Shown piece after piece: positions 10,951 through 47,616 of a DNA stretch of 64,000 bases; positions within the stretch are counted from its first letter, which is position 1; each line of letters begins with the position of its first letter. Origin of the DNA: Nitrospirales bacterium. Lineage in GTDB: Bacteria > Nitrospirota > Nitrospiria > Nitrospirales > UBA8639. Where the stretch lies: NCBI GenBank assembly GCA_963555755.3, contig OY820905.2, forward strand, positions 2,720,001-2,784,000, in the 5' to 3' direction. A program made the translations under genes and the position numbers. The notes beneath the pieces were generated by a model that saw nothing but the letters and a program-made list of their open reading frames with translations, was not told the origin of the DNA and searched no databases.

Positions 10951-11096
10951 GGGAATGTTCAAAAAAGCATGCCCTGAGTCTTTCGGAAGGGTCTATCCAG
11001 CAAGGCCGCAGCCGTTTTGACGCGCGGAGCGTACTCTTCGTACGTGAGCACGGCAAAAGGGCGAGAACGCCGCTGGCGGCTTTTTTCAACATTCCC
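10951..11096 (+). mobile_element. MITE family A with an inserted mini-hairpin
   Basis: TIRs gggaatgttcaaaaa / ttttcaacattccc; core ccagcaagg...cggagcgtac..gtacgtgag...acgccgctgg. Confidence 0.85.
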
Positions 11097-11114
11097 GGAG
11101 GAATAGGAGAATTT

Positions 11115-12623
11115 ATGAATTGTCAGGTCAAGCAAGGAGATATCAACACAGAAGCCACGGAGGTGTTGGTCTTAGGTGGTTATGAAGATGAGAACACGTT
11201 GCCCAAAACATATCAAGGACTGGATAAAGCGTTGGGTGGACAACTCCAAGAGCTGAGAAAAAACGGAGAGTTTTCAGGCAAGAATCAACAATCGGTGTTG
11301 ATTCATACGCGTGGAGCCGTTCCTGCCAAGCGAATTCTATTGATGGGTTTAGGCAAGAAAAAGGATGTGACCTTAGACCGCGTGCGCCAAGCCATGGGTA
11401 CGGCATCCAAAAAGGTTCGGCAAACCGGGGCACAAAAGTTTTCCGCCCCAATATTAGGAGCCGATGCCCTAAGTGCCTCTGCATCTGACGTCGTCCAAGC
11501 AATGGTCGAGGGGGCTATTCTGGGAGGATACCGCTTCAATCACTATCGATCGGACAATGGGGATGCGTCAAAAGAAGTTCAGTCGATCACACTCATAGCA
11601 AATACTGCGAGCCAAATGAGTGGAATGAAAACCGGCGCGAAGCGCGGAGAAGCCAGTGCCAACGCCACATCATTGGCGCGCGATCTCTGTAACCACCCAG
11701 CCAATGTCATGACCCCAACGCGCGTGGTGAAAGAAGCGAAAAAAATCACTAAAGAATCCAAGGTGAAATTAACGGTGTTGGAACGCAAGCATCAGGAAAA
11801 ATTAGGCATGGGTGGCATGCTGGGCGTATCGCGCGGAAGCCAGGAACCTCCTAAATTTCTTATTCTGGAATATTCCGGTGGCAAGAAAAAAGAACAACCC
11901 ATTGTGTTGGTCGGAAAAACCGTCACCTTCGATTCGGGCGGTATTTCCATTAAGCCCGCCGAGAATATGGAACAGATGAAAGCGGATATGACCGGTGGAG
12001 CAGAGGTACTGGGCGCGGTGCGAGCGGCTGCTCGTCTTAAATTGCCAATCAATCTGATAGGCATCCTTCCTGCTGTGGAAAATATGCCCGGCGGTCGAGC
12101 GACCAAACCAGGGGATATCCTGAATATGCTCAACGGCAAAACCGTTGAAGTGCAAAATACTGATGCTGAGGGCCGACTGATCTTAGCCGACGGCCTGTCC
12201 TATGCCACTCGGCTCAAACCGAAATGTGTGGTTGATATTGCCACGCTGACTGGCGCGTGCATTGTGGCACTGGGCCAATTCGCAATTGGCATGTTGGGCA
12301 ATGATGATAAGTTAAAAGCCGAGTTGAAAAAAGCGGGCGAGCAAGCGGGCGAACGCGTGTGGGAAATGCCGCTCTGGGACGAATATTTCGAACAACTCAA
12401 AAGTGACGTGGCGGACATGCGCAATATCGGTGGCCGTGGGGGTGGCATGATCACCGCTGGGATGTTCTTGAGTAAGTTTGTCGGAGATTACCCTTGGGTA
12501 CATCTCGATATTGCGAGCACGGACTGGAGTGCCTCTGAACGCCCGTACGTCAGTAAAGGGCCAACCGCCATTGGCACGCGATTGTTGGTTCAATTTTTAA
12601 TCAATCGTGCAGGGAATTCATGA
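11115..12623 (+). CDS. pepA: Leucyl aminopeptidase (M17)
   Basis: VGKTVTFDSGG, MKADMTG, NTDAEGRL, DIATLTGA, WVHLDIA. Confidence 0.96.
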   Translation: MNCQVKQGDINTEATEVLVLGGYEDENTLPKTYQGLDKALGGQLQELRKNGEFSGKNQQSVLIHTRGAVPAKRILLMGLGKKKDVTLDRVRQAMGTASKKVRQTGAQKFSAPILGADALSASASDVVQAMVEGAILGGYRFNHYRSDNGDASKEVQSITLIANTASQMSGMKTGAKRGEASANATSLARDLCNHPANVMTPTRVVKEAKKITKESKVKLTVLERKHQEKLGMGGMLGVSRGSQEPPKFLILEYSGGKKKEQPIVLVGKTVTFDSGGISIKPAENMEQMKADMTGGAEVLGAVRAAARLKLPINLIGILPAVENMPGGRATKPGDILNMLNGKTVEVQNTDAEGRLILADGLSYATRLKPKCVVDIATLTGACIVALGQFAIGMLGNDDKLKAELKKAGEQAGERVWEMPLWDEYFEQLKSDVADMRNIGGRGGGMITAGMFLSKFVGDYPWVHLDIASTDWSASERPYVSKGPTAIGTRLLVQFLINRAGNS

Positions 12624-12636
12624 AAGGTCTCTCTCA

Positions 12637-13722
12637 ATGACGGCCCGTGGCACCATCGGACAGCTCTTGATGGTGGGGTTCCAAGGGACAGAACTCTCTT
12701 CGGAATTTATCGACTGGCTTCAAGAATATCGCCCAAGTGGGGTTATTCTGTTTTCACGCAACCTGGTCGATCCCGAACAAGTTGCCCGGCTCACGAATTC
12801 CCTTCAAGAACATGCGCCAAACCCTCCCCTCTTGATCGCGATCGATCAAGAAGGGGGGCGCGTCTCGCGATTACCTCAAGGGTTTACTATCTTCCCTTCA
12901 GCGGTTTCAGTGGCTGCATGTCAATCACCGGATGTGGCCTATGGAGTTGCGGAGATTACAGCCAAAGAACTGCGGGCCGTCGGGATCAACATGAACATGG
13001 CCCCGGTGTTGGATGTGAACAGCAATCCCGCCAATCCCATCATTGGGATTCGGGCGTATGGTAATTGTCCCGAACAAGTCTGCACTTTTGCCATGGCCAC
13101 GATGGAGGGGCTCCGGGACAACGGAGTTATTCCTTGCGGCAAACATTTTCCCGGACATGGCGACACCACGACGGATTCACACAAAGTCCTGCCCGTGGTG
13201 AACGCCGACCGAGCCCGGCTGGATGCCATTGAATTGGCACCCTTTCGCCATGCGATTGGCCACGGGCTCCCGACTATTATGACCGCGCATGTTCACTACC
13301 CTGCTCTTGATGCCGATGCTCCCGCGACCTTGTCTCGCCCTATCTTAACCGACCTCTTGCGGAATGAATTGGGTTTCCAAGGAGTCACACTCACCGATGA
13401 TATGGAAATGCGAGCGATTCTCGATCATGGGTCTATTGGAGAAGCCTCCGCCCGCTCCCTTCAGGCAGGAGCCGACATGGTGCTCATTTGTCATCAACAG
13501 GATCGGCAAACCGAGGCCGTGCTAGCCATCGAGCAAGCGCTGGATCGAGGTGAGCTTTCCATGGACGATCTTACGGCCAGCGCTGATCGTATACACGCTC
13601 TGAAAAAAACCCATCTTTCCTCATTTCAACCCGTCGATCCTTCGCAGGTCTCCCAAACAGTCGGCATTCCCCCCCACAAATCCTTTCTGGGAAAAATTCA
13701 CCGAGTCGCCGCCCGAGTGTAA
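12637..13722 (+). CDS. nagZ: Beta-N-acetylhexosaminidase (GH3)
   Basis: IDQEGGRVSRL, APVLDV, KHFPGHGDTTTDSH, TDDMEM. Confidence 0.93.
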   Translation: MTARGTIGQLLMVGFQGTELSSEFIDWLQEYRPSGVILFSRNLVDPEQVARLTNSLQEHAPNPPLLIAIDQEGGRVSRLPQGFTIFPSAVSVAACQSPDVAYGVAEITAKELRAVGINMNMAPVLDVNSNPANPIIGIRAYGNCPEQVCTFAMATMEGLRDNGVIPCGKHFPGHGDTTTDSHKVLPVVNADRARLDAIELAPFRHAIGHGLPTIMTAHVHYPALDADAPATLSRPILTDLLRNELGFQGVTLTDDMEMRAILDHGSIGEASARSLQAGADMVLICHQQDRQTEAVLAIEQALDRGELSMDDLTASADRIHALKKTHLSSFQPVDPSQVSQTVGIPPHKSFLGKIHRVAARV

Positions 13723-13773
13723 TCTCTTTTCTTTCCAAAGCTGGACTTTCCCCCTTTCAATTTGGTTAGCTAG

Positions 13774-14062
13774 GAGCCTGTCCGAGATTAGCGATCGTAG
13801 CGAGGAGGTGCTGGTTTGAGTCAGATGTTTCGATCGTTTGAGGCGAATAGTGGGACTATTCAACGAAAACGGGGAATGTTCAAAAAGGCCATCCAGCAAG
13901 GCCGCAGGGGTTTTGGCGGGCGGAGCGTACACGGAGTACGTGAGCACGCCAAAAGCCCGAGAACGCAGCTGGGGGCCTTTTTCAACATTCCCCGAAAAGG
14001 ATCGGAAGATCTGGCCACCTCCAGCACATCCGCAGTAGATTCGGCTAATCTGGGACAGGCTC
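13774..14062. mobile_element. MITE family D (CTAG target) containing a nested family A copy
   Basis: TIRs gagcctgtccgagattag / ctaatctgggacaggctc; CTAG on both sides (13770..13773, 14063..14066). Confidence 0.8.
13871..13993 (+). mobile_element. MITE family A, nested copy
   Basis: ggggaatgttcaaaaaggcc ... ggcctttttcaacattcccc with the shared core. Confidence 0.85.
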
Positions 14063-14194
14063 CTAGGCCAACGGCATCGAGTCATCATTTTTCTTGGCAC
14101 GTGACTTTTTTTCTTTCTAAGGATTGTTGCAAAATTGAAACAATCTCGATTGGCCCTTGGTCTTGACACACCATCAATCACAACAAAAGGAACA

Positions 14195-14315
14195 GGGACT
14201 GTTCAAAAAGGCCGTCCAGCAAGGCCGCAAGCAGCGAGAAGGGCGAGGCGTACGCTGCGTACGTTGAGGCCTTCGCGCAATGAGAACGCAGCTGGCGGCT
14301 TTTTTCAACAGTCCC
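14195..14315 (+). mobile_element. MITE family A, variant core
   Basis: gggactgttcaaaaag / ttttcaacagtccc; apical gagg-cgtac..gtacg-ttgag. Confidence 0.8.
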
Positions 14316-14328
14316 TTCGGAGGATTTC

Positions 14329-14724
14329 ATGGGGTTAAAAAAGGGAGACATCATTGATGAACACAAAAACCACCCAGATAGTTGTGGCTTGATGATCAAA
14401 GTCATGGCCGGAGGAGAAGGGTTTGAAAAAATCGTGTGCTGTGGGCATGAATTAACGGAAGAAGATGTCATGCCGACCTTTACCCGCGGTCGAGGACGCA
14501 AGCGAGGGACGTTACCACCTGCCGTCCTCTTGGATGAAAAAAAACTTTACCAGGATTCCTGTGGCCTTCGAGTCATGATCATGGATGGCGGAGCAGGATT
14601 TCAGGAAATCATCTGCTGTGGGCATTCACTCAAACTCAACGCCATGAAAGAACTTAAATATGGCGAAGATCAACGCGGAGGAGAGGAACAGATAGAAGAG
14701 ACAGGGCATTCAGGGACTGCGTAA
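14329..14724 (+). CDS. Small protein with two desulforedoxin-like Cys repeats
   Basis: GGAGG RBS; DSCGLMIKVMAGGEGFEKIVCCGHEL and DSCGLRVMIMDGGAGFQEIICCGHSL. Confidence 0.7.
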   Translation: MGLKKGDIIDEHKNHPDSCGLMIKVMAGGEGFEKIVCCGHELTEEDVMPTFTRGRGRKRGTLPPAVLLDEKKLYQDSCGLRVMIMDGGAGFQEIICCGHSLKLNAMKELKYGEDQRGGEEQIEETGHSGTA

Positions 14725-14918
14725 CGGCCGTGAAACGTAATGCGTAAAAAACCTAAGGTGAAATGGGGAAGGCCCCGCGATTCCTCAACTAGCACAGTAC
14801 ACGAACCCCCTCATAATACCATCTTCTCCTCTCGCATCACGGATAACGCATCACGCATGACGAAACAGGTCTTGCATCTCCGAAACCGGGCATGGCACTA
14901 TATTTTCCCGAACCTACC

Positions 14919-15524
14919 ATGAGTACACTTCCTGAATTCGTCGGTACGATTCATATTTTTTTCGGTCCCTACCGTGGCAACCCGATTGCGCTCTATTTGC
15001 GAAAGAAAGGCGAATCCTGGCACATCTCGCCAACTATCTATCCCTGGAATCGATTTGTGGGAATTGGGGAAAGCGTCAATAAAGCTGCGGCAAATTTCGA
15101 TGTCAATTGGAAAGAAGGCAATCTCGCACCGGAAATGTACTCCGGTCCCCACTGGGAAGGTGGAATAAAACCAGAAAAACCCAAACCGCCACCCAAGCCA
15201 GCAGCTCCCCCACAACCAGCCACGACTGAACCCGCGAAGGCAGAAACACCGGTTGCCGACCTTCCAAAACCCGAGGCGGCTCAAGCCGGAACCGCGAAAC
15301 CAGAAGCCACAAAGCCTTCGACACCAACAAATGCTCCCTCACCAACCAGTGAATCCTCGCAATCCCAAACAGCCAATATCACTCCGGCCCCGCCTGCACC
15401 AGCACTACCCGCAGATACGAATTCTGCATCAGCGGCTCCAGCTCCTCCAGAACCAAAAAGTTCACCACTACCCACCCCAACCAAATCTACTTCAACGGTC
15501 GATCCTCCTAAAAACTCGTCATAA
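14919..15524 (+). CDS. Hypothetical protein with an aromatic N-terminal domain and a long Pro/Ala/Thr-rich tail
   Basis: Long ORF co-oriented with its neighbours; start uncertain (14892 or 14919). Confidence 0.65.
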   Translation: MSTLPEFVGTIHIFFGPYRGNPIALYLRKKGESWHISPTIYPWNRFVGIGESVNKAAANFDVNWKEGNLAPEMYSGPHWEGGIKPEKPKPPPKPAAPPQPATTEPAKAETPVADLPKPEAAQAGTAKPEATKPSTPTNAPSPTSESSQSQTANITPAPPAPALPADTNSASAAPAPPEPKSSPLPTPTKSTSTVDPPKNSS

Positions 15525-15694
15525 ACATAAATCCATTTCTCAACTCTTGGAGACCAACCCCTGTTGTTGATCGACAATGTCAGGCCGGATACCCAAAAGG
15601 GAGGCCCCAACGCAGAGATTTCCCAGGATAAAACTAAAAACGCCAGTCACATGGCCATTGGCCCGTTCATGCCCCTCGGCAGTACTCAGGACGG

Positions 15695-15805
15695 GCTTCG
15701 ACCCTTCGGCAAGCTATGGGTCAGCACGAACGGGATGTCGGGGCGGTCACCCGTTGGGTCAAATGCCATTCGCCCTGAGCGCCGCGGCTTCCGCAGGAGT
15801 CGAAG
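15695..15805. repeat. REP-like palindromic element (cttcga...tcagcacgaacgg...ccctgag...gtcgaag)
   Basis: Related copy at about 51940..52050. Confidence 0.55.
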
Positions 15806-15901
15806 AGATCCGAGAGTTCCAATGGCCGTTTTTAGGATTATTCGTCCTAGCGATGCAAATCCTCCGCCCTATTTTCAACATACACCTTGTTTTTAACTTT
15901 A

Positions 15902-16043
15902 GGGCACCTCTAAAAATCCCGGCATTTTTTGTGAGGGCAAAGAAGCCGCGCGCGGAAAACCGGAGTGTATGGGCGAATACATGAGGATGTGAGCACGTGG
16001 CTGACGCCGCCATCACGGAAAAGGACGGTTTTTAGAGGTGCCC
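15902..16043 (+). mobile_element. MITE family C
   Basis: 15-bp perfect TIRs gggcacctctaaaaa; 4-bp TSD TTTA; near-identical to 35361..35501. Confidence 0.9.
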
Positions 16044-16168
16044 TTTACAACATTTTTCCCGTTTTTGAAGTGGATTTGAGAGTAACGACACAGAGGCGTG
16101 AATATTTCCCGGCTCAATTTTTTCTCAAACACCCCTACCCAATAATGGAAAAGTAGGGGCGAGGAGGG

Positions 16169-16924
16169 CTATTGGCATGACTTGCGTTTGGAAAAGGCTC
16201 GGGCTGCTCTGATAAGCGCTTGAAATAGCTTTTTTTGGATGGGATGGCGTTCGTACAAAAACTCGGGATGCCATTGCACGCCGAGGAGAAACTGTTTGTT
16301 CGGGGCTTCAATGGCTTCGATGATCCCATCAGGGGAAACAGCAGTGGTGAAGAGGCACGAGGGAACGTCTTTGACAGATTGATGGTGCGAGCTATTGACC
16401 TGAATGGTCGCTTTGCCGGCAATGCGCCGAAGCAGTGATCGCGGTTCGATCTGAATAGCATGGGCTATCTTCGTGGCTGAGTAGGTTGGTTGGTGCGAGA
16501 TCGAGGTGTTGAGTTGAGAGTTGATGTCTTGAAACAGGGTTCCCCCCAGCGCAACGTTGATGGATTGCATGCCACCACAGATGCCGAGCATGGGCACATC
16601 GGCTTGGTACGCGATTTTGGAGATGCCTAATTCCAGGATCGCGCGCGCGCTACTCATGCGCGTAAATTTGTATCGTTGCTTCTCTCCGTATGTTTCCGGG
16701 GCAAGGTCTGACCCACTACCGGTGATCAGCAACCCATCAACGTGGGAGACAATTCTCCGCCATGCCCGACGATCAGGCAGGAGTGGAAGAATGAACGGAA
16801 TGCCGCCCGCATCCTCAATGGCTTTGGTATAGCGAACCCGAAGGAAATAGGTGGGCTCTTTTCCACCCATATCCTTGCGATCGCCTGCATTAAAATCTGG
16901 CGTGACGCCGATGATAGGTTTCAT
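16169..16924 (-). CDS. Gamma-glutamyl-GABA hydrolase / peptidase C26 family glutamine amidotransferase
   Basis: KPIIGVT, GLLITGSGSD, LGICGGMQ, VNSSHHQSV, GVQWHPE. Confidence 0.9.
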   Translation of the reverse strand: MKPIIGVTPDFNAGDRKDMGGKEPTYFLRVRYTKAIEDAGGIPFILPLLPDRRAWRRIVSHVDGLLITGSGSDLAPETYGEKQRYKFTRMSSARAILELGISKIAYQADVPMLGICGGMQSINVALGGTLFQDINSQLNTSISHQPTYSATKIAHAIQIEPRSLLRRIAGKATIQVNSSHHQSVKDVPSCLFTTAVSPDGIIEAIEAPNKQFLLGVQWHPEFLYERHPIQKKLFQALIRAARAFSKRKSCQ

Positions 16925-16951
16925 CAAGAATCGCTATCTCACTCCAGTGCG

Positions 16952-17524
16952 TTACTCCGCGTAGGCATCTTCTTCGTAGGGACTCACACCAAAAAATCGA
17001 AGGGGTGTTTTCCCTTTGAGATGATCTGGGGTGATGACGTAATCACCGTAAAAACTGGGCGCCCATACGGCCTGGGCTGTTTCAGTATTTCCTCCGGTCA
17101 ACACCCAGGTGGCGCCTCCGACAATTCCCCCCAATCCCGCATAAATAATCTTCGCGGGGCCATAGGGAAGGGTCAGCAGTGCACTGGCGACACCAAGCCC
17201 GGCTTCTTCAACCGGATCCGAGTCTTCCTGTGCCGCAGCCAGGGTGGCGCCTCCGCCAACCAACAGCACACACATGGCCAACACAAGAAAACACTTGGAC
17301 CAGTTGAACCTAGAAACGGCAGTTGGGCGCCAACCAGCCGTGTAAGATATTGGGGTGCCTGGTGCAATACAAAAAGTCGAGGTCACCTCGGTGGTGATGA
17401 GACATTTTTGTATTGTGCCAGGTGTGCCAAGGGCTAGCGCGGACTTTTGTGATCCACCTGCCGTTTCTAGGTTCATGAATAATTCATGAGATGAGCGCCC
17501 GTTCATAAACTTTTGGGTTTTCAT
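16952..17524 (-). CDS. Hypothetical exported/membrane protein with an in-frame MITE in its N-terminus
   Basis: AAGGAGG RBS before ATG 17524; signal-like CFLVLAMCVLLVGGGATLAAA follows the MITE-encoded segment. Confidence 0.65.
   Translation of the reverse strand: MKTQKFMNGRSSHELFMNLETAGGSQKSALALGTPGTIQKCLITTEVTSTFCIAPGTPISYTAGWRPTAVSRFNWSKCFLVLAMCVLLVGGGATLAAAQEDSDPVEEAGLGVASALLTLPYGPAKIIYAGLGGIVGGATWVLTGGNTETAQAVWAPSFYGDYVITPDHLKGKTPLRFFGVSPYEEDAYAE
17309..17471. mobile_element. MITE family E (163 bp), copy 1
   Basis: cctagaaacggcag...ctgccgtttctagg; same length as, and clearly homologous to, 60905..61067. Confidence 0.9.
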
Positions 17525-18284: not shown

Positions 18285-18450
18285 GGGGCTGTTCAAAAAG
18301 CATGCCCTCGCGGAGGCGGGGGGGTGCGCTCAGCAAGGCCGCAGGCACTTTGGCGCGCGGAGGGTACGTGAGCACGACAAAGGGCCGAGAACGCCGCTGG
18401 CTTGTCTGCCGTAGCCTTGGCGAAGGCTGGCGCCCTTTTTCACCATTCCC
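18285..18450 (+). mobile_element. MITE family A, degenerate, with two inserted mini-hairpins
   Basis: ggggctgttcaaaaag ... cagcaaggccgc ... gtacgtgagcacg ... acgccgctgg ... ttttcaccattccc. Confidence 0.75.
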
Positions 18451-19356: not shown

Positions 19357-19424
19357 ATTCCGTTAATTATAGCTACTTCAATTAACTACCGCACTCTCTG
19401 CTGATGGTGGAAGAACCATAGATT

Positions 19425-19532
19425 AAATCCGAAGCTCGAATATCAAAATCCGAAACAATTGAGAATGACCAAATTGAAACATTCGCATTTAGGATTTTGG
19501 GCTTGTTTCGAAATTCGATATTCGTATTTCGA
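19425..19532. repeat. Inverted heptamer array (AAATCCG/CGAAATC type)
   Basis: aaatccgaagctcgaatatcaaaatccgaaac ... gtttcgaaattcgatattcgtatttcga. Confidence 0.75.
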
Positions 19533-19536
19533 GTGT

Positions 19537-20367
19537 ATGACATTTATTTGGAATGGCTATACACGGCGCAGGCAGGCTTTACTACCCTACATAACCCTTG
19601 TGTTTGTGCTGATGGTGATCGGTGTGGGCTGTCAGGCAGACTCCACTCGAAACGATCCTCTGACGTTAACCGCCGCGTTAGTGGAATTGCTTCAGGATCC
19701 CTCTCCAGACGTCCGGCGAACCGCGGCGCTGTCTCTTGGGAAAATTGGGCATTCCGCAGGAACACAGGGATTGGCCAAGGCAATATCTGATCCAGATCCT
19801 TTAGTTCGAGAATATAGTGCCTGGGCTCTTGGCCAAATCGGAGAAGAAATCAATACGGATGCAGCCCTCGCAGTCGTATCTGCCTTGGGAGACGAGCACC
19901 CAGCGGTCAAACAAGCAGCAGCGAAAGCATTAGGAAATATCGGAATACGAAGGTCTATGATTCCTTTGCTCATCGAAGGATTGAAAGTCGGCGAAGTCCA
20001 GAGCCGCCGTGCGGTGGTCGATGCGCTCATGCACCTGGAAGGGAAAAATGCGTACTCCGCACTCCTTGCTGTTTTGGACGACCCTGACCCCAACGTTCGG
20101 CAAGGAGCCATTGCCGCCTTAGGAGAATTAGGTGACCGACATGCACTTCCCCTGTTTCGAAAAAGCTTGTTGAGTGATCCAAATGTGGGAGTACGAACCG
20201 AAGCGGCTTATCGGCTTGGAAAACTGGGTGGCCCCACTGACCTTCATTCCCTACAAAAAGCCGCCAAGCAGGATACCGCCCCCATTGTTCATTTGTGGGC
20301 CACCTGGGCTATCAACAATATTACTCCTGTTCCCGAAGCGGCAGGGTTGAAATCTGCTGAGAATTGA
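19537..20367 (+). CDS. HEAT-repeat (PBS-lyase-like) putative lipoprotein
   Basis: Hydrophobic segment ending GVGC; repeats L.DP.P.VR..AA..LG.IG. Confidence 0.85.
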   Translation: MTFIWNGYTRRRQALLPYITLVFVLMVIGVGCQADSTRNDPLTLTAALVELLQDPSPDVRRTAALSLGKIGHSAGTQGLAKAISDPDPLVREYSAWALGQIGEEINTDAALAVVSALGDEHPAVKQAAAKALGNIGIRRSMIPLLIEGLKVGEVQSRRAVVDALMHLEGKNAYSALLAVLDDPDPNVRQGAIAALGELGDRHALPLFRKSLLSDPNVGVRTEAAYRLGKLGGPTDLHSLQKAAKQDTAPIVHLWATWAINNITPVPEAAGLKSAEN

Positions 20368-20397: not shown

Positions 20398-20538
20398 GTA
20401 ACTACTCAGGTTGCTTCAATTTTGGCTCAGGACAAGGCGCGAGGAGCGCAGAACCGGAGCGTATGTGGGAATACGTGAGGATTTGAGCACCACAGCAACG
20501 CCGTCATGAGCCAAAAGGGAAGTGACCTGAGTAGTTAC
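20398..20538 (+). mobile_element. MITE family B with IS66-type ends
   Basis: TIRs gtaactactcaggt / acctgagtagttac identical to the IS66 at 5187..7599; perfect 8-bp TSD aaaggtta. Confidence 0.93.
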
Positions 20539-22382: not shown

Positions 22383-22539
22383 GGGCTCGCGCAAGAATAA
22401 TTTCCCATGTTTGGGCGTCGATCCATCCCGCCTGGCGGCGTGGCTCGTCCTTTCCATACGAGGAGTATGCGCAGTCCTCGCGCCTTGCCAGACAGGTGTC
22501 TCAGCACCCAAACATGGAAAGTTATTCTTGCGCGAGCCC
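22383..22539 (-). mobile_element. MITE family F
   Basis: 18-bp perfect TIRs gggctcgcgcaagaataa; 3-bp TSD TAA; minus-strand core tggc-aagg-cgcgagg...acgcc-gcca. Confidence 0.88.
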
Positions 22540-24545: not shown

Positions 24546-24627
24546 GACAAGTCTGGGGAAAGGATAAGAATTTTGTCCGGTACTATACCTGACTCCCTAC
24601 AATGACAAAAGCAGAGATATCGGAGGC

Positions 24628-24842
24628 CAAATCCGAAACTCGAATATCGAAATCCGAAACACACCTGAAATAAATCCGAAATCCGAATCTCGAAATCCGA
24701 AAAACATTCAAATGACTAATACCAAAAATGCTCGAAACAGTCAGTACGGCTTTTTTGCGCCCAACTGCCGTTTCTAGGTTGAAACATTCGAGTGTATGAT
24801 TTCGGATGTGTTTCGGATTTCGAGATTCGGATTTCGAATTTA
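24628..24842. repeat. Inverted heptamer array containing a family E MITE end (about 24746..24778)
   Basis: (cgaaatc)n ... (gatttcg)n; internal acggcttttttgcgcccaactgccgtttctagg is the reverse complement of the left end of 60905. Confidence 0.8.
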
Positions 24843-24863
24843 AGACACGGAGTAGGGAGGTCA

Positions 24864-25490
24864 TTACGAGGCTGACATATCACGAAACAGCCATGGTGCT
24901 TCAGCCTTTCTCCGTTGTTCGTAGGCGGTGATGGCCGCTTCCTGTTTTAGGGTCAATCCGATCGCGTCGAGGCCTTCCATCAGACAATTCTTTCGAAATG
25001 GATCGATTGAAAAGTGAAAAAGGAAGCCTGCAGGTGTGGCCACTGTTTGGTTGAGAAGGTCAATAGTCAGTTGCACGGTCTCTTCACTCGTCACCGCATC
25101 AAAAAGTTGCTGGATTTCTTCCGCTTGAAGCGTGACAGGCAACATACCGTTTTGAAAACAGTTGTTATAAAAAATATCCGCAAAACTCGGAGCCAGAAGG
25201 GATCGAATACCATAATCCAACAGTGCCCAAGGAGCATGTTCCCGTGACGACCCGCATCCAAAGTTGTCACGCGTGAGCAAAATCGTGGCATGTTCATATC
25301 GGGGCTGGTTCATGAAGAAATCAGGGTCTGGTGTATCGTTGGCCTGCATTTTCCAATCGACGAATAGACCCGTTTTGAGTCCGGTCCGATGAATAGTCTT
25401 CAAATATTGCTTGGGAATAATTTGGTCAGTATCGACATTGACCCGATCAAGCGGAGCAACAATGCCCGTCAAAGTGGTAAACGGTTCCAT
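24864..25490 (-). CDS. leuD: 3-isopropylmalate dehydratase small subunit
   Basis: NVDTDQIIPKQ, NFGCGSSREHAPWAL, SFADIFYNN. Confidence 0.97.
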   Translation of the reverse strand: MEPFTTLTGIVAPLDRVNVDTDQIIPKQYLKTIHRTGLKTGLFVDWKMQANDTPDPDFFMNQPRYEHATILLTRDNFGCGSSREHAPWALLDYGIRSLLAPSFADIFYNNCFQNGMLPVTLQAEEIQQLFDAVTSEETVQLTIDLLNQTVATPAGFLFHFSIDPFRKNCLMEGLDAIGLTLKQEAAITAYEQRRKAEAPWLFRDMSAS

Positions 25491-25604: not shown

Positions 25605-25723
25605 GGGGCTGTTGAAAAAGGTCTCCAGCAAGGCCGCAGGGCCTTTGGCGCGCGGAGCGTACTCTCGTACGTGAGCACGACAAAGGACCGAGAACGCCGC
25701 TGGTGGCCTTTTTCAACAGCCCC
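25605..25723 (+). mobile_element. MITE family A between leuC and leuD
   Basis: ggggctgttgaaaaagg / cctttttcaacagcccc; abuts the leuC stop. Confidence 0.88.
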
Positions 25724-27127: not shown

Positions 27128-27269
27128 CCCTAGCTCCTGTAGTAAATTGAAGGACCAATATCATGCGCCGAATGAATTCCGCCTTGCAACCCCATGATGC
27201 CTGGGTTAGCTGGGCTGAAGGGTCAGTCGTCAACCAAACAGTCTGGAGTACAAAATGTTGAATGGCTCA

Positions 27270-27483
27270 GGTTCAGGGTTCAGGGTTCAGGGTTCAGGGT
27301 TCAGGGTTCACGGTTCAGGGTTCACGGTTCAGGGTTCACGGTTCAGGGTTCACGGTTCAGGGTTCACGGTTCAGGGTTCACGGTTCAGGGTTCACGGTTC
27401 AGGGTTCACGGTTCAGGGTTCAGGGTTCACGGTTCAGGGTTCACGGTTCAGGGTTCACGGTTCAGGGTTCAGGGTTCAGGGTT
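27270..27483. repeat. Tandem array of 30 GGTTCA(G/C) heptamers
   Basis: Uninterrupted 7-bp period, largely alternating CAC/CAG; short inverted copy at about 27536..27559. Confidence 0.97.
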
Positions 27484-27926
27484 GGTTCTATTGCCACACA
27501 TCAATATTTTTAAACCCTTCAATCTTTACTCTATTCCTAAACCGGGAACCCTGAACCTGCCAACCTGCGTCGTTATCAAATTTTTGCCCCCCCCCCTTTT
27601 CATAAGACCCCGAGCGAGGTAACTTGGTAGGTGACAGAGGATTTGCTATACTTTTTGAAAGGTTTCGTTTACATTTCATGGTTTAGGGTTTGACCATTGA
27701 CGGAAAAACTCCTTTTCCGTCGAGGACTTATGTTACAAAGAGATCTCGTCTTCTTTGAGCAGACCCACCTCCGTCCCAGGATGTGACCCTCAAGCCAATT
27801 GGCCAATCGGCCAATCAGATAGTATGTCTTTCTTGTGATGTGGCAAAAGTAATTGAAAAACAGCATCCGTTTGAGCAAAACCGGGTCCCTCGATCATGCA
27901 ATCGATCATGTCAAGAGTCGTCCTGA

Positions 27927-35174: not shown

Positions 35175-35202
35175 GTGGGATAAATTCGACTATCGTGGAA
35201 TA

Positions 35203-35358
35203 CATCCGAAACTCGAATATCGAAATCCTAAACACATTTACATGATCAAAAGGTAAAGAACCAAAACGATTCTTTCTATTGGTCGGCATGACCCTTTGAA
35301 GCATTCGAGTTTTGTATTTAAGATTTGTTTCGGATTTCGATATTCGAATTTCAGATTT
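35203..35358. repeat. Inverted heptamer array (CGAAATC type)
   Basis: atccgaaactcgaatatcgaaatcctaaac ... gtttcggatttcgatattcgaatttcagattt. Confidence 0.8.
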
Positions 35359-35360
35359 AA

Positions 35361-35501
35361 GGGCACCTCTAAAAACCAGGCATTTTTTGTGAGGGCAAGG
35401 AAGCCGCGCGCGGAAAACCGGAGTGTATGGGCGAATACATGAGGATTTGAGCACGCGGCTGACGCCGCCATCACGGAAAAGGACGGTTTTTAGAGGTGCC
35501 C
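35361..35501 (+). mobile_element. MITE family C, copy 2
   Basis: TIRs gggcacctctaaaaa; TSD TTAA. Confidence 0.9.
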
Positions 35502-41141: not shown

Positions 41142-42467
41142 TTATCCTTGAATCACAGCAAATTGATACACCTGCTGCAACGCTCGTTCTGAACGAATCC
41201 GGTCTTCAAACTCTTGACGGGAAGTATCCCCGCCGGATGTGATCATATCCTGGATATTCTCAACAGGAATTCGAAGGCTGTGCGCCAATTTGGTAATTTC
41301 CTCTTGAATGTCTTGATCGGAAACAGACACCCCTTCTTTGTCGGCAATGGCCTCAAGGATCAGCGCGAGTTTGACGCGTTTTTTGGCATCGGGTGCGAGG
41401 TCTTGTTGCAAGCGTTTCACTTCCGCTTCCCAATACGTTTGATCATCAGGGGAAGGCCCGCCACCTTTTTTACGCTGCTCGCTCATTAAGCGTTGACGAA
41501 CCATGGCTTTGACTTCCCGTTCCACTAGCACTTCAGGGAGATCGAAATGATGCATTGACACGAGCCGCTCAATGATTTGATCTTTATGCGCCTCTTCCAC
41601 CTCTCGTTTCAGTGCACTCTCCAATTCTGTGCGTACTTTGTCTTTGAGTACATCCAGGGTTTCATAGGGGCCGCAGTCTTTGGCGAATTCGTCATCCAAC
41701 GCTGGGACGTTTTTTTGCTTCACCCCCACGATAGCAATCCGAAACGTGACAGACTTTCCTGCCAATCGTTCGTCGGGGTGAGTCGCCGGATATTCTTGAA
41801 CCACTTCCGCGGTTTGTCCTTCGGATAACCCCATCAACGCTTCGTCAATCTTGATACCCAAAACTGGTTCGTTTGAGCCCACCGTGTGGAGATGACCATC
41901 TTTTTTCGACCCATCAACTGGCTCACCATCAAGGAGCCCTTCGATATTGACAACGGCGTAGAGGCCTTCATCCAGAGGGGTACCCTTCGGCGCCACATCA
42001 ATCTGTGCTTGTGACTCCCGTAGCTTTTCCAAGGCCTTGTCCACATCTTCATCAGAAATCGATCGTGTATCAGGCTTTAAAGAAATAGGATTGGGCGGAC
42101 GGTAATCCCGCAATTCGAATGTTGGCTTGATTTCGACCGTGGCGGTAAATGTCAACGAGGTATCGCGTTGGGCTTTCATCCGGTCGAGCGGGGGAATTTC
42201 TACCAAGACCGGAGAGACACCGGCCTCTTTCATCGCCCGTTGGTAGTAATTCGGTACTAGGCTTTGGATGACATCTTGCTCTACGGCTTTCGCATACCGC
42301 TTTACCAGCATGGCCATGGGGGCTTTACCTGGACGAAATCCAGGGATACGGACTTGCCGTTTCAGGTTAGTGTAAACCCGATCAAATTCTTGGTTAACCA
42401 CATCTTCAGGAACTTCAATTTTGATCGCCCGTTTAACCGGACCCAGTTCTGTCACTTCCAATTTCAT
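41142..42467 (-). CDS. tig: Trigger factor
   Basis: IPGFRPGKAP motif, LAGK.VTF, LDDEFAK; synteny with clpPX. Confidence 0.94.
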   Translation of the reverse strand: MKLEVTELGPVKRAIKIEVPEDVVNQEFDRVYTNLKRQVRIPGFRPGKAPMAMLVKRYAKAVEQDVIQSLVPNYYQRAMKEAGVSPVLVEIPPLDRMKAQRDTSLTFTATVEIKPTFELRDYRPPNPISLKPDTRSISDEDVDKALEKLRESQAQIDVAPKGTPLDEGLYAVVNIEGLLDGEPVDGSKKDGHLHTVGSNEPVLGIKIDEALMGLSEGQTAEVVQEYPATHPDERLAGKSVTFRIAIVGVKQKNVPALDDEFAKDCGPYETLDVLKDKVRTELESALKREVEEAHKDQIIERLVSMHHFDLPEVLVEREVKAMVRQRLMSEQRKKGGGPSPDDQTYWEAEVKRLQQDLAPDAKKRVKLALILEAIADKEGVSVSDQDIQEEITKLAHSLRIPVENIQDMITSGGDTSRQEFEDRIRSERALQQVYQFAVIQG

Positions 42468-42528
42468 GATACGTCTCTGCCTTTTAATAATGTATTAATG
42501 AGTCGATGCGAAGAACCCCACCGAAACG

Positions 42529-42611
42529 TGGTGCGAGAGGGGGGACTTGAACCCCCACGGTCTCCCACGAGATCCTAAATCTCGCGCGTCTGCCGGTTCC
42601 GCCACTCTCGC
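42529..42611 (-). tRNA. tRNA-Leu(TAG)
   Basis: gcgagagtggcggaaccggcagacgcg-cgaga-ttTAGga-tctcg...ggttcaagtcc...ctctcgcacca. Confidence 0.95.
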
Positions 42612-42776
42612 ATCGATGGCCTTCGTCATTCGCTATCTGTTATGAGAATGAATCGAATTGTGATCCACGTGAATCGAGGTAAACAAGGGCTCTTTCATGC
42701 ATCATAGACTCTTGTATGTTAAGCTGTTTTCCCTATTTACCCACACCTTGCATGCAGTGTCAACGACTATAGATAT

Positions 42777-42977
42777 GATTCCGTAGTTCGTATTTCGGGA
42801 TTCGTATTTCGTCATTCCTTTTCCGTTCTTTCACGCTTGCACGCCGGGCCTACTTCGCCGGAGTAGCTACGAAGGCTGAAAGCGCTCCCGGCCGTCGTAG
42901 CCAAGAGGCTACTATGGCGGAGTCGGCACAGCCCGCAGGCACCAGATACGAATGACGAGATACGAATGACGAATTTC
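42777..42977. repeat. Inverted heptamer array enclosing nested mini-hairpins
   Basis: ttcgtatttcg... / ...gatacgaatgacga flanking cctacttcgcc..gctacgaagg and ccgtcgtagcc..ggctactatgg. Confidence 0.65.
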
Positions 42978-43025
42978 CATTCTCTTCTTGCCAGAATCGC
43001 GACAACTGAGCTAAGGTAAAGAGTT

Positions 43026-43286
43026 ATGGGACTCAAGAAACTCTACCTCGATATTTACGAACAGTTTTCCCAAAAACAGGGAACCGCTAAGGGCTACAAC
43101 TTTCAGGAAAGCAGTCAAGGTAGTACGCGGCCCAAAATGGTCACCTTCAAAGACCGGGTCAAATGGTGGACCCTTAATCGCCCCAAGCGATTAACCATGA
43201 TCACGCAAGAACGGGACCGACAGCAACAGGAAATCCTTGCGATCAAACAGCAGCCGAAGTCCACACCTCAAAACCCTCAAGCCTGA
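43026..43286 (+). CDS. Hypothetical protein
   Basis: 86-aa ATG ORF with purine-rich RBS, co-oriented with the next gene. Confidence 0.55.
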   Translation: MGLKKLYLDIYEQFSQKQGTAKGYNFQESSQGSTRPKMVTFKDRVKWWTLNRPKRLTMITQERDRQQQEILAIKQQPKSTPQNPQA

Positions 43287-43304
43287 TTCTCTACACGACC
43301 ACAC

Positions 43305-44111
43305 ATGTTCGAGCTCGTCCGAGCGACCCTTGAGTTATATCGACAGGCCTTGCGTGCCACCTTTTCCTCCTTGACCAGGAATTGGACCCTTATTGCAGCC
43401 ATTGTCGTACTCGCCATCTTGATGTTCCTCATCACGGGCGTGGCCATGTCACTAGGTATGCTCGGCGGATTTTTGTTGGGAGCCGCCAATGCCTTCGCGG
43501 TGGGAACGCTGTTGAGTCTGGTAGAGCAAGCCGTGATGACAACACGCCGAATAACCTGGGAAGATCTGTGGAAGGCAGCCGGTCAATATTTTTGGGATGT
43601 CATTTCCATTGGGTTTATTGTCTGGGTGCCATTGCAGTTTTTGGAAATCGGGATGCAAGCCAATCCCAACGGGCCTGCCATCGTCTCGGCGGTGTTTTTT
43701 CTGCTTTTTCTTTTGCTGAATCCCGTCCCGGAAATTATCTATCAAGTCCGCCTTGGTTCGCCCCTCGACAGCCTAAAGGAAAGCTATGAATTTGTACTAG
43801 AAAACTGGATTGAATGGTTTGTGCCATTAGCGGTGATTCTCGCGCCGTTTGGGCTGTCGTTCTTCTTTGTGATTTCAGGCCAAGGAGGCCGGCTCATCGG
43901 CTTGGACTTTTTGCACTTGTTGCAGCTGCCGTTTGCTGTACTGGCTCAGCTATTCCAACTTCTCGGCTTTTCCTCATCTCTCGCCACAGTGATCATCCTC
44001 ATCCTTACACCGATAGGCGTGGTCGCAATGATGTTATTTCGCGGGTTCCTCTTTTCGGCATTGCATGGATCGTCGAGACGACAACGGCAATTTCGTGCCA
44101 GGGGTTGTTGA
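43305..44111 (+). CDS. Multi-pass membrane protein, unknown function
   Basis: Several hydrophobic helices; stop codon lies inside the adjacent MITE. Confidence 0.75.
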   Translation: MFELVRATLELYRQALRATFSSLTRNWTLIAAIVVLAILMFLITGVAMSLGMLGGFLLGAANAFAVGTLLSLVEQAVMTTRRITWEDLWKAAGQYFWDVISIGFIVWVPLQFLEIGMQANPNGPAIVSAVFFLLFLLLNPVPEIIYQVRLGSPLDSLKESYEFVLENWIEWFVPLAVILAPFGLSFFFVISGQGGRLIGLDFLHLLQLPFAVLAQLFQLLGFSSSLATVIILILTPIGVVAMMLFRGFLFSALHGSSRRQRQFRARGC

Positions 44112-44243
44112 AAAAGCATGCCCTGAGTCTTTCCGAAGGGTCCCAGCGGCGTTCTCGGGCCTTTGTCGTGCTCACGTACTCACGTACGCTCCGCGCGCCA
44201 AAGCCCCTGCGGCCTTGCTGGAGGGCCTTTTTGAACAACCCCC
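44101..44243 (-). mobile_element. MITE family A, reverse orientation
   Basis: ggggttgttgaaaaag ... ctttttgaacaacccc with the reverse-complement core. Confidence 0.85.
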
Positions 44244-44592
44244 TTTCCTTCTGACAATTGAAGCGGTTAGACCGTCCCTGGAAAACTCACAAAAAATATG
44301 AATTATTCAACAGTCCCTGCCAGGTCTCTTGGGTCCTAGTAGATATGAAGCGTCATGCGTAAAGCGTGATACGCAGGAGAAAAACGCGATGGAATTTCTT
44401 CCTCGCTTCACGCATGACGCTTCACGTTTCACGAAATAGACCTTAATCCAACACGTTACGGACAGGTCCTGAACAGCCCATTTTAGCGATCCTTGTGGAC
44501 CGGAAAGGCCCGTGATAATATGTCGAACCTTGCTGAAAATAGGAGAAAAAAGCTTCTTGATCAGCCTAAAATTTCACTAGTTGATATGGTTT

Positions 44593-44682
44593 GGAGAGGT
44601 GCGAGAGTGGCCGATTCGGCGTGCTTGGAAAGCACGTGTACCGGCAACGGTACCATGGGTTCGAATCCCATCCTCTCCGCCA
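44593..44682 (+). tRNA. tRNA-Ser(GGA)
   Basis: ggagagg...cgtgc-ttGGAaa-gcacg, long variable arm, ggttcgaatcc...cctctccgcca. Confidence 0.95.
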
Positions 44683-44726
44683 TTAGCTTGATAACTAACA
44701 GAAATGATTCGCCTCAGAGAGTCATT

Positions 44727-44858
44727 TATGGATCAAAATTCAAGCCTTGGAAGCTGATCAGTTTTGTTGGATTTTCTGAAGCTTCAAAGGCCGTTGAATT
44801 TGAACGTTACCTTAAGACGGGATCTGGGCGAGCCTTTGCTAGAAAAAGATTATTGTAA
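44727..44858 (+). pseudogene. 3' remnant of a small GIY-YIG nuclease
   Basis: SKFKPWKLISFVGFSEASKAVEFERYLKTGSGRAFARKRLL*; the N-terminal GIY-YIG motif is missing. Confidence 0.7.
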
Positions 44859-44916
44859 TACGACCAGATGTAGGAGGATTGTTCCAGAGCACGGAATAAT
44901 CATAAATACTCGAAAA

Positions 44917-45017
44917 GGGGCTGGGCCCTGTGCAACAGAATCTTGTGAACCCCGCCAGGTCCGGAAGGAAGCAACGGTAAGCAGGCGAGTCTGGGTGCCG
45001 CAGGATCACCTGGCCCC
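44917..45017 (+). ncRNA. ffs: Signal recognition particle RNA (4.5S)
   Basis: Domain IV ccaggtccggaaggaagcaacgg; terminal pairing ggggc..gg / cc..gcccc; upstream of dnaX. Confidence 0.93.
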
Positions 45018-45026
45018 GGTTTTTAT

Positions 45027-45149
45027 GGAAATGTTCACAAAACCCCGCCAGCGGCGTTCTCGCCATTTTGCCGTGCTCACGTACTGAGAGTACGCTCCGC
45101 TCGTCAAAATGGCTGCGGCCTTGCTGGACAGGATTTTTTGAGCATTTCC
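45027..45149 (-). mobile_element. MITE family A, reverse orientation
   Basis: ggaaatgttcacaaaa ... ttttttgagcatttcc with the reverse core. Confidence 0.8.
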
Positions 45150-45309
45150 AGTTGATAATGCCCATCAGAGCTTGGGCATTGATTGATCATTGAAGTAAAA
45201 TTTTCAACCGTCCTTAATCTCTATGCGTGAGACGTGATCCGAAATGTGTAAAGAACAATCCGTTTTCACATTCTTCGCTTCACGCTTCACGCTTCACGCT
45301 TAACGAACG

Positions 45310-47166
45310 ATGGAATACCAAGTCTCCGCTAGAAAATTTCGCCCGGGTACGTTTGACGAACTGATTGGTCAACCCCACGTCGTCCAAACGTTGCGGAATG
45401 CGATTCTGCGCAAACAAGTGGCTCATGCCTATTTGTTCTCAGGGATGCGTGGCGTGGGTAAGACAACAGTGGCCCGCATTCTCGCCAAAGCTCTCAATTG
45501 TGAAAATGGACCGACCGCCGATCCCTGCGAACAATGCGAAAGTTGCAAGGAAATCAGCCGTGGCAATTCTGTTGATGTTATTGAGATAGACGGCGCATCG
45601 AATACTGGAGTCGATGATGTCCGCGAACTTCGGGAAAATGTGAAATATGCCCCGTTTCGCGGCACCTACCGGATTTACATCATCGACGAAGTCCACATGC
45701 TTTCCAATGCTGCGTTTAACGCTTTACTGAAAACGCTGGAAGAACCGCCGGCTCATGCCATCTTTGTCTTTGCCACCACCGAAATTCATAAAATTCCCGC
45801 TACCATCACGTCACGGTGCCAGCATTTTAATTTTCGCCGCATTCCCCGCCGGGAAATTATCGCACGCCTTCAAGAGGTGGCCACACGGAATGACGTGACC
45901 ATTGAGGAGCGGAGCTTGGGCGCAATTGCTCAAGCCAGCGAAGGCAGCATGCGCGACGCGTTAAGCTTGCTGGATCAAGCCGTGGCTTTTGGTGGGAAGT
46001 CGATCGGCGATCAGGACATTGAAGACATGCTCGGCTCGGTGCCGGATGAACTGGTTCGCCGGTTGGTGGAAACCGTTGTTGGCCAAGACGCGGCAGCGGC
46101 GGTAGAGTTAGTCGGCGAAGTTATCGACCACGGGTATGATCTTCGCGTGTATTGCGGAGCCGTGGTAGAACGAATGCGCAACCTCATGATCGCTGCCGTG
46201 GTGCCTGGAGCAGCGCAAGCCGAAGGGTTGATGGACTTACCGAGTGAAGATGTTCAACACCTGATGACGGAAGCCAAAGCATTTTCCGTTGAACAATTAC
46301 AGGAGCTGTTTCAGTTGTTTGCCCAAGCGGAAGATCGGCTTCGCGTCACAGCCCATCCACGTTTTGCCTTTGAAGTGGCAGCGGTTCGAGCAGCTCGGTT
46401 GTTTCAACATAAACCGGCTGCCTCTAGCAGCCAACCCATAGACGTGGCTCCGAAACCTACGGCCCATAGGACTGGTACGGCTCAGCCAGAAGTGCCAAGG
46501 AAGCTGATTCCGGCAGGAGCCCCCTCGCCAAAGCCTCTGCCAACCCAGTCAGAACGCAGGCCTGAAACAACAGCCACTCTTGCCCAAGAAGAGCCCAGCC
46601 CGGCTCAAAAGCCGCCGCAAAAATCGAATGAGCCGCAACGAACTTCAGGGGCCACTCGAACAACCGAACGACCGCAAGTAGTATCCAAAGGGCCATTGCC
46701 AAGTCCGGCTCTGCCCAAGGGCAAACCATCGCCAGCCCTAACCCCAGCCCTTCAACCGGACGATTGGCGAAAAGTCGTCGAGTCGATGATTAAAAAATAT
46801 CCGAACATCGGCACGTTTCTGGAGATGGGTATGTTGGTCAAGGTTGAAGGGAACCAAGTCATCATCGGATTTCCGAAAACTGCGTCTGTAGCATGCTCTC
46901 GCATTCAAAAAGAAGAGAATCGGGTGCTGATCTCGACAATTTGCCAAGAGGTGGTTGGAGCCACGATCCAGCTTCGCGTGGTCGAGTTAGCAGAAAATCA
47001 GGAAAGTGGTCTGACCATCAAGCAGATGCGGGTTCAACGGCAGAAACACGATGATGACGCGTTGCTTGAAGAAGCAAAAGCCAACTCATTAGTAAAGCAA
47101 ACGATGGAGCTGTTTGGCGGAGAGGTGATCAAAGCCAGCCGCATGGTGGAGAAAAAGGAGGCATAA
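45310..47166 (+). CDS. dnaX: DNA polymerase III subunit gamma/tau
   Basis: ARKFRP, GMRGVGKTT, EIDGASN, IIDEVHML, SRC. Confidence 0.96.
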   Translation: MEYQVSARKFRPGTFDELIGQPHVVQTLRNAILRKQVAHAYLFSGMRGVGKTTVARILAKALNCENGPTADPCEQCESCKEISRGNSVDVIEIDGASNTGVDDVRELRENVKYAPFRGTYRIYIIDEVHMLSNAAFNALLKTLEEPPAHAIFVFATTEIHKIPATITSRCQHFNFRRIPRREIIARLQEVATRNDVTIEERSLGAIAQASEGSMRDALSLLDQAVAFGGKSIGDQDIEDMLGSVPDELVRRLVETVVGQDAAAAVELVGEVIDHGYDLRVYCGAVVERMRNLMIAAVVPGAAQAEGLMDLPSEDVQHLMTEAKAFSVEQLQELFQLFAQAEDRLRVTAHPRFAFEVAAVRAARLFQHKPAASSSQPIDVAPKPTAHRTGTAQPEVPRKLIPAGAPSPKPLPTQSERRPETTATLAQEEPSPAQKPPQKSNEPQRTSGATRTTERPQVVSKGPLPSPALPKGKPSPALTPALQPDDWRKVVESMIKKYPNIGTFLEMGMLVKVEGNQVIIGFPKTASVACSRIQKEENRVLISTICQEVVGATIQLRVVELAENQESGLTIKQMRVQRQKHDDDALLEEAKANSLVKQTMELFGGEVIKASRMVEKKEA

Positions 47167-47168
47167 GC

Positions 47169-47495
47169 ATGTCGAAGAATCCATTTGGAAATATGGCCGA
47201 TATGATGAAACAGGCGCAGGCCATGCAGGAGCGGTTAGGCAAGATTCAAGAAGAGGCCGAGACCAAAACAGTGGAGGCTTCAGCTGGCGGCGGCATGGTC
47301 ACGATCACGGCCAATGGTGGCATGAAGATTATCAAAATCGCCATCGATCCTGAGGTCTTAAAATCCGAGGATCCCGAGATGCTTCAGGATTTATTGGTGG
47401 CGGCCACGAACGAAGCCCTTCGCAAAGCCAAAGAACTCATGGCTGAAGAGGTAAAAGGGCTCACCGGCGGAATGGGCATCCCAGGCATGTTCTAG
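47169..47495 (+). CDS. ybaB: YbaB/EbfC nucleoid-associated protein
   Basis: MMKQAQAMQ, SAGGGMV, EMLQDLL.AA.NEA. Confidence 0.94.
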   Translation: MSKNPFGNMADMMKQAQAMQERLGKIQEEAETKTVEASAGGGMVTITANGGMKIIKIAIDPEVLKSEDPEMLQDLLVAATNEALRKAKELMAEEVKGLTGGMGIPGMF

Positions 47496-47496
47496 C

Positions 47497-47616
47497 CAGG
47501 ATGTTCAAAATGTCCACCAGCGGCGTTCTCGGGCCTTTGTCGTGCTCACGTACTGGTGTACGCTCCGCGCGCCAAAGTCCCTGCGGCCTTGCTGGACGGC
47601 CATTTTGAACATCCTG
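47497..47616 (-). mobile_element. MITE family A between ybaB and recR
   Basis: Perfect 16-bp TIRs caggatgttcaaaatg / cattttgaacatcctg. Confidence 0.88.

Follow-up and report, generated by a model that had tools for sequence, protein, structure and literature searches.

One hairpin core in transposable repeats with different ends in a Nitrospirales genome, and its relation to ERIC and RPE1

Described repeats and the shared core

ERIC, RPE and CIR repeats are treated as separate families in the pertinent parts of the literature (PMC10969869, PMC2229807, PMC3184786, PMC11602168, PMC2267715, PMC2759123, PMC3372372, PMC1273637, PMC5938721). The cores of the MITEs (miniature transposable elements with inverted repeats) of Neisseria, E. 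coli and Anabaena are said to show no similarity in a passage of PMC3184786, and reviews, in their sections on MITEs, regard these as deletion products of a parent insertion sequence (IS) (PMC11602168, PMC10969869). How ERIC and RPE arose and how they move has been an unsettled question for decades. The elements analyzed here reside in a stretch of 64,000 nucleotides of a Nitrospirales bacterium (assembly GCA_963555755.3, contig OY820905.2, positions 2,720,001 to 2,784,000), hereafter the window, which is part of a 4.62-Mb genome. Elements of the families A, B and C, and in part F, have different ends and share one hairpin core. The core itself is a known sequence, found in the interiors of ERIC and RPE1; its sharing between families was not found described in the literature searched, which did not include the first descriptions of RPE, CIR and the ERIC of Yersinia. 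Ogata reportedly compared RPE with IRU and RSA, and is said to have perhaps noted a weak similarity, which could lower the novelty of the finding.

The core is an imperfect hairpin of ~80 nt. A basal helix with an AA bulge (AAGGC/ACGC) is followed by a free middle stem, and then by an apical loop of tandem G.A plus G.U, which a 5-bp stem bearing a variable loop closes. A preliminary description of the window gave the basal motif, AAGG...ACGC(C/A), and the apical hairpin, GGAG-stem-TGAG, correctly. Genome-wide, nhmmer searches with core queries free of terminal inverted repeats (TIRs) detected 315 A, 144 B/C and 174 F copies, 633 in total. A descriptor of the shared architecture has 156 matches in the genome; the three controls, a pair of Markov genomes and the genome in reverse, gave 0, 1 and 1.

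That the core would still join the families after removal of the TIRs was borne out for B and C. The covariance model R1, built from 11 TIR-free A cores, matches B with E 4.9e-5 and C with E 5.6e-4 (copy at 35392) and 4.5e-6 (locus L008), E-values of such models being rough; a C copy with the AAAG variant scored E 0.29. B and C had been presented as unrelated at their ends. The ends do differ, but the two families are homologous across the interior, differ mainly in the outer ~20 bp, and 114 of 120 B matches in the genome overlap C matches in nhmmer searches. For F the same architecture had been claimed; the basal half is present, the rest is not shared, and model scores are not significant in the window (E 0.078 for R1, and 0.23). 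F and B share a 13-base and a 10-base word at mirrored places in 112/174 F copies.

All 10 matches of R1 at E<=1 on the E. coli K-12 chromosome are repeats, 5 of ERIC type and 5 of a second family which we take to be RSA. An E. coli locus at rpsB-tsf, matched by R1 with E 2e-5, also matches the ERIC primers published in PMC5938721, in the part that lists them. The protein hidden Markov model of RPE1 (TIGR01045) has 110 matches below cut-off in the Nitrospirales genome, 108 of which lie in B/C elements. In Rickettsia, a locus (L057) that carries exactly the B/C apical motif is an RPE1 scoring above cut-off. A match of the core to described repeats is the outcome that the preliminary description had set against its idea of a module picking up ends or selected as cargo; as the core is the interior of ERIC and RPE1, common descent with swapping of ends is favoured over independent selection of a cargo.

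Likeness to each described system is partial. ERIC/IRU/RU-1 elements of enterobacteria and Vibrionaceae feature the same outer helix, AAGGC...ACGC, and a GGAG-CTTAC/GTAAG-TGA apical hairpin. They differ in being ~127 bp long with TA termini (PMC2229807, Table 1, and a passage of PMC3184786), the families described here having IS66-, IS5- and other-type ends, target site duplications (TSDs) of 8, 4, 5 and 3 bp, and one bulged G more in the apical loop. The central hairpin and the basal motif of ERIC are thus found here; the ~127-bp length, the TA termini and the ERIC ends are not. B/C cores correspond to positions 14/17-37 of the 48 of the RPE1 profile, and are like RPE1 in length (141-146 bp) and in the identical apical motif. 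The best score here is 21.2 bits (positions 14-37), against a cut-off of 30 and 36-77 bits for true RPE1, so that no element here is a full-length RPE1 above cut-off. RPE1 ends do not match those of the families here, and RPEs are often in frame within genes, while the window copies are intergenic. The second K-12 repeat has an apical half near-identical to B/C at five K-12 loci, but the AAGG basal motif is missing or altered, and the ends are different.

IS-derived MITEs such as RUP/IS630 and TIMEs/Tn3 resemble families B, C and J in that TIR and TSD match an autonomous partner (B/IS66, C/IS5, J/IS1182); unlike theirs, the interior here is no deletion product of the partner, and is common to several transposase families. 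The Rfam models CssrA, V_AS5 and sX9 overlap core-bearing repeats in other genomes, of which they represent fragments or antisense strands; an Rfam scan of window positions 10000-48500 at E<=5 gave no match on the elements. One REP of the GTAG type in E. coli K-12 (L021:2601) has the AAGGCG...ACGCCGC words of the basal motif, but the shared stretch spans only ~13 bases, and the elements here have TIRs and DDE-type TSDs. No Y1 transposase was found among 89 open reading frames (ORFs) neighbouring metagenome cores, no genome search being aimed at RAYT.

Two RNA motifs were considered and rejected. Kink-turns have a 3-nt bulge before tandem G.A pairs; here the covarying pairs 25-58, 26-57 and 28-55 argue for a bulge of 1 nt, and ERIC has none. 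A hammerhead was likewise rejected on register and sequence. Proteobacterial relatives (L037, L039, L075, L108, L131 and others) have an extra conserved outer loop, GTAG...AGTAG, which resembles loop E motifs.

Ends, partner transposons and mobile units

All 12 elements reported earlier are present at the coordinates stated for them, with complementarity of 12-16 per 16 terminal bases. Sizes and TSDs were also confirmed (B, 141 bp and 8-bp TSD; C, 141-142 bp and 4 bp; F, 157 bp and TAA). They are listed below with some other transposable elements of the window.

5187..7599, strand -: autonomous IS66 of 2413 bp; ends equal to those of family B at 14/14 bases, interior without core
10951..11096, strand +: palindrome of family A; core 10997-11076, additional small hairpin at ~10967-10996, degenerate outer spacer from ~10890
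13774..14062, strand +: IS1182-ended MITE (family J, CTAG TSD); A palindrome nested at 13870-13994, core 13893-13972
14195..14315, strand +: variant of family A with apical loop GAGG...TTGAG; core 14216-14295, outer end ~14121
15902..16043, strand +: family C MITE with IS5-type ends and 4-bp TSD; core 15934-16013, AAAG variant
17307..17473, strand +: family G MITE; apical-loop-like motif only
18285..18450, strand +: family A palindrome with shortened apical hairpin; two small hairpins inserted, outer end ~18210
20398..20538, strand +: family B MITE with IS66 ends and 8-bp TSD; core 20429-20507, missing in related strains
22383..22539, strand -: family F MITE with 3-bp TSD; basal half-core 22432-22491 and short variant hairpin
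25605..25723, strand +: palindrome of family A, located between leuC and leuD; core 25625-25703, outer end ~25568
35361..35501, strand +: family C MITE with TTAA TSD; core 35392-35471, RPE1 model match below cut-off
44101..44317, strand -: full family A unit with exact 5-bp TSD; outer end, ~75-nt spacer, palindrome 44101-44242
45027..45149, strand -: family A palindrome directly after the signal recognition particle (SRP) RNA gene; core 45048-45127, outer end ~45213
47497..47616, strand -: palindrome of family A, located between ybaB and recR; core 47517-47595
60903..61069, strand +: second family G copy; overlaps the 3' end of an IS5 ORF

Elements of all core families have the size and structure of MITEs, being palindromes of 119-166 bp (A units ~190-215 bp) with TIRs and without transposase. 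Exact TSDs were found genome-wide in 91/115 C (4 bp), 84/149 F (3 bp) and 4/10 B copies (8 bp). Ends matching an autonomous IS were found for B in the same genome, for C elsewhere, and for neither A nor F. B ends are identical to those of an IS66 of 2413 bp with 12 genomic copies, one of which lies in the window; an ORF upstream of its transposase (6636-7523, strand -) matches Pfam DruA (PF14236), and not the usual IS66 accessory families. The B site is empty in 3/3 DNA-type runs, with a skip of 146 nt against 149 expected. C ends match a 1296-bp IS5 with 4-bp TSD on a viral contig (L340); this IS5 was not found in the Nitrospirales genome with the query used. J ends match IS1182. No F partner was found in 4 viral loci or by a search with NF033580, and paired-end scans of the genome for a parent IS yielded only other elements nested inside MITEs. 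An IS5 (L012) was discarded as partner of A, the resemblance of the ends being loose and its TSD reading 4 or 6 bp, not 5. Plasmid blastn searches with the B core and with C gave short, chance-level matches only.

The preliminary description had allowed that the core might be the interior of a parent IS. None of four autonomous ISs tested carries it. Blastn of their interiors against the 633 elements gave no match, the ends of L340 matching C as a positive control, and the covariance model has no match in L340 or L010-L012. The interior of the elements is accordingly not a deletion product of the partner IS. Further MITE families of the genome (G, H, I, J, F2 and B2) are mutually nested, up to several deep; H has two arms, and G and I retain an apical-loop-like motif.

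Family A had been described as a set of MITEs delimited by the palindrome. The palindromes are real, but the mobile unit is usually ~70 bp longer, and the palindrome is mostly without TSD. In many A copies a third TIR is found ~70 nt upstream, beyond a conserved spacer. In 242 copies, an exact 5-bp TSD was seen at the outer end in 47 and a near match in 18, an exact one at the palindrome ends in 3, and none in 141. Empty sites in sister genomes (e.g. L332, L334, L311) also support the longer unit. Among single copies, the one at 13871 is an A palindrome, though a passenger within an IS1182-ended MITE and mobilised along with it, the J+A composite being a 293-nt block missing in 3/3 DNA-type runs of related strains. 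The copies at 18285 and 14195 belong to A as claimed, the first having lost most of the apical hairpin and the second carrying the variant GAGG/TTGAG. Of 127 A units, 124 have the core in one orientation with respect to the spacer and 3 in the opposite one; inversions may be rare, or inverted forms may fail to spread. Spacer and A palindrome form a head-to-tail tandem at G000:C1:453977-454438, and elsewhere a collapsed, core-less palindrome precedes.

Small hairpins of 22-30 nt sit at fixed positions of A elements (e.g. window 10967-10996, 18300-18325, 18400-18430 and 44118-44142). One type has 104 of 183 copies within core elements, which make up ~2% of the genome; some immediately precede AAGG. 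IS110 (~12 copies) targets CT within the small hairpin of A copies (e.g. L010), and window 10967-10996 is an unoccupied IS110 target hairpin. Clustered IS110 ORFs adjoin cores in 9/11 cases, and only IS110 is enriched among core neighbours in this genome.

Occurrence in other bacteria

Within the same phylum, R1 matches were found in 16 of 61 genomes. The exact apical pattern resides in at least 121 genome loci of hosts including Chlorobium, Bacillus, Bacteroidales, Scalindua, Deferribacteraceae, Desulfobacula, Rickettsia and many proteobacteria, and 81 of the 121 loci, among the matches listed, have TIRs of many types. R1 matches 32 of 37 loci picked by hand from this set and, at E<=0.001, 41 of 100 sources. 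The covariation score of the cross-phylum alignment is 0.42, against 0.12 for shuffled and 0.05-0.08 for slid alignments, in a set chosen by motif, fitted to the model and hence biased towards structure.

A less circular test relied on a metagenome pattern lacking the 3' basal motif, which yielded 122 loci, 109 with usable flanks. The 3' basal motif was found at the mirrored distance in 86 of the 109 and in 1 of 105 background windows, and the apical stem pairs exactly in 105 of 109, where 31 were expected. Total lengths cluster at 120-129 and 140-149 bp. Of the 100 ORFs adjoining metagenome cores 89 were scanned, and none is a transposase at E<=1e-20.

Covariation, conserved mismatches and competing explanations

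Covariation of the apical hairpin, noted in the preliminary description, holds between families; within family A the apical stem is invariant. Among 150 unique A cores, drawn from the 226 of 315 copies with fixed geometry, compensatory changes map to 22 tree branches, against 0-1 in slid controls. Similar changes occur in copies that did not move. In orthologous copies both arm tips changed jointly (e.g. the leuC-leuD copy at 25605 in genome G006), the core was inverted in place between the arms (L337), the apical module was replaced with retention of the basal motif (L310), or one subfamily was swapped for another (L330). In the ortholog comparison 40 stretches were fetched, 30 had an ortholog, and 14 pairs were comparable; these contain 5 compensatory and 2 other double changes, and 10 single changes that keep pairing. 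According to a part of PMC8604942, no selection is needed for template switching to homogenise arms and invert spacers. As arms change jointly at fixed loci, covariation alone is no proof of selection on RNA, and template switching can explain it. Self-complementary tips, of 26 distinct types, were counted in 158/242 A copies. On the motif strand G.T mispairs outnumber A.C (59 vs 20), and A.G outnumber C.T (99 vs 12), in copies that are not independent. These elements call for caution in RNA discovery: DNA template switching can produce strong covariation in palindromic repeats, and some Rfam small RNA models are pieces of such repeats.

The mismatches behave otherwise. Template switching should erase them, yet in five tests symmetrised motifs number 0 against 237, 226, 102, 97 and 125 native ones, which suggests selection. 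Across 228 unique A cores, conservation of the internal-loop letters is 90% or more, against 40-69% at several positions of the middle stem and 40-60% in the apical loop; identical mismatched letters persist across sets whose middle stems turn over completely. The apical loop varies in length, which suits a hairpin more than a double-stranded site of fixed spacing. The motif strand is the better folder in 9/9 B, 57/60 C and 55/60 F copies. We infer that a single-stranded fold, in DNA or RNA form, is recognised. No bias for replication strand was detected (A 144/314, C 72/134, F 88/174), and sense/antisense placement relative to genes, from crude gene calls, depends on the family (A 51/78, C 34/11, F 37/27), a pattern fitting the spread of the element itself better than a role in host mRNA.

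The reading that we prefer, held with belief and doubt about evenly balanced, is that of one inherited core whose ends were exchanged, one arm acquiring an end and the other copying it, and whose fold was kept as an aid in cis to copying. A, B, C and, in part, F would be MITEs built on a hairpin core of common ancestry with ERIC and RPE1. One arm would gain a new IS end, which template switching would copy onto the other arm, and the element with rewritten ends could then ride the matching DDE transposase. The mismatched motifs would persist because the folded motif strand is recognised by some factor, probably a protein, and the fold would be retained since the single-stranded form helps the element to get copied. 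To judge from sequence, aid to mobility in cis is the likely role of the core.

Several points weigh against this reading. Searches of this genome turned up no partner transposase for A, C or F. A second IS66-ended MITE, B2, has no model match and equals B in copy number (10 paired copies), so that IS66 mobilisation does not need the core. By sequence alone, nhmmer does not join A or F to B/C, and R1 leaves F below significance in the window. Family A folds near-equally on both strands (35/60). Cross-phylum sets were selected by the apical-motif pattern, and the invariance of the motif in them is circular. Pair-breaking single changes exceed pair-keeping ones in the ortholog pairs (15 vs 10), and symmetrised copies could be absent merely since longer perfect palindromes get deleted.

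If true, one core with exchangeable ends would unite ERIC and RPE repeats and reverse the logic by which MITEs are deletion products of a parent IS. Family B is a clean test system of the kind lacking for ERIC: its core-bearing MITE has exact IS66 ends, the genome also harbours the autonomous IS66, related strains supply empty sites, and B2 is a natural control without the core. A broader proposal is more tentative, and we regard it as rather unlikely: ERIC and RPE would form one superfamily with the second E. coli repeat and with many cross-phylum MITEs, defined by a folded cis-module and not by the ends. This module would serve as a transposase-independent enhancer or as the recognition signal of a single-stranded DNA or RNA copying step, and would allow the element to pass from one DDE family to another (IS66, IS5, IS1182 and others), its two ends being rewritten together.

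Of the alternatives, the one that survives best, unlikely in our estimate, accepts the same descent and end swapping, and attributes retention of the motif to host tolerance, the folded RNA sparing transcripts harmful cleavage or tuning their decay. The tandem G.A, G.U and bulges are RNA-like, the motif strand is the better folder in three families, C is mostly sense to tandem genes, Rfam lists fragments of such repeats as small RNAs, and ERIC alters mRNA levels through RNase E, as reported in a passage of PMC10969869. A is mostly antisense and F unbiased, sX9 lies on the strand opposite the motif, and about half of the copies never place the motif strand in host mRNA. The role in mRNA stability offered in the preliminary description is not favoured, orientation being inconsistent between families.

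Doubtful, and ranking next, is an explanation with no specific recognition at all: an inherited core, horizontal transfer and covariation by template switching, with mismatches surviving only by averting a lethal perfect palindrome. Homogenised arms and inverted spacers, the products ascribed to template switching in the cited part of PMC8604942, are both seen here, and core-less B2 spreads as well as B. Against it count the same mismatched letters being kept through complete turnover of the middle stem, and the conservation of the A internal loop relative to that stem.

Copying via RNA is very improbable. A reverse transcriptase would recognise the fold, and the cDNA hairpin would become a duplex with TIR ends, inserted by a fitting DDE transposase. 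The strand-specific RNA-like motif, the perfect but variable arms, the high copy numbers and the uniform core orientation in A units would agree with it, and so would multi-copy ORFs resembling reverse transcriptases in the genome, judged by eye from a YADD-like stretch; none of 89 core neighbours is a reverse transcriptase, however, a promoter scan of one A spacer found none, and the arms are explained more simply by DNA template switching. Least probable of all is convergence, by which unrelated MITEs would have independently picked up or evolved the same cargo module: A and F give no sequence match to B/C and the families G, H and I hold only parts of the motif, but B and C align across the whole interior, F and B words sit at mirrored places, and the lengths of metagenome elements cluster in two classes.

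Intergenic heptamer-repeat tracts and hairpins were found at window 14828, 19414-19539, 24618-24872, 27214-27521, 35191-35361, 39078, 44399, 45271 and 48358. They alternate with A elements at orthologous sites, and in one case replace the apical part of the core. Two tRNAs and the SRP RNA are encoded at window 44593-44679, 42532-42611 and 44919-45018, and the ORF at 43305-44111 terminates within the A copy at 44101.

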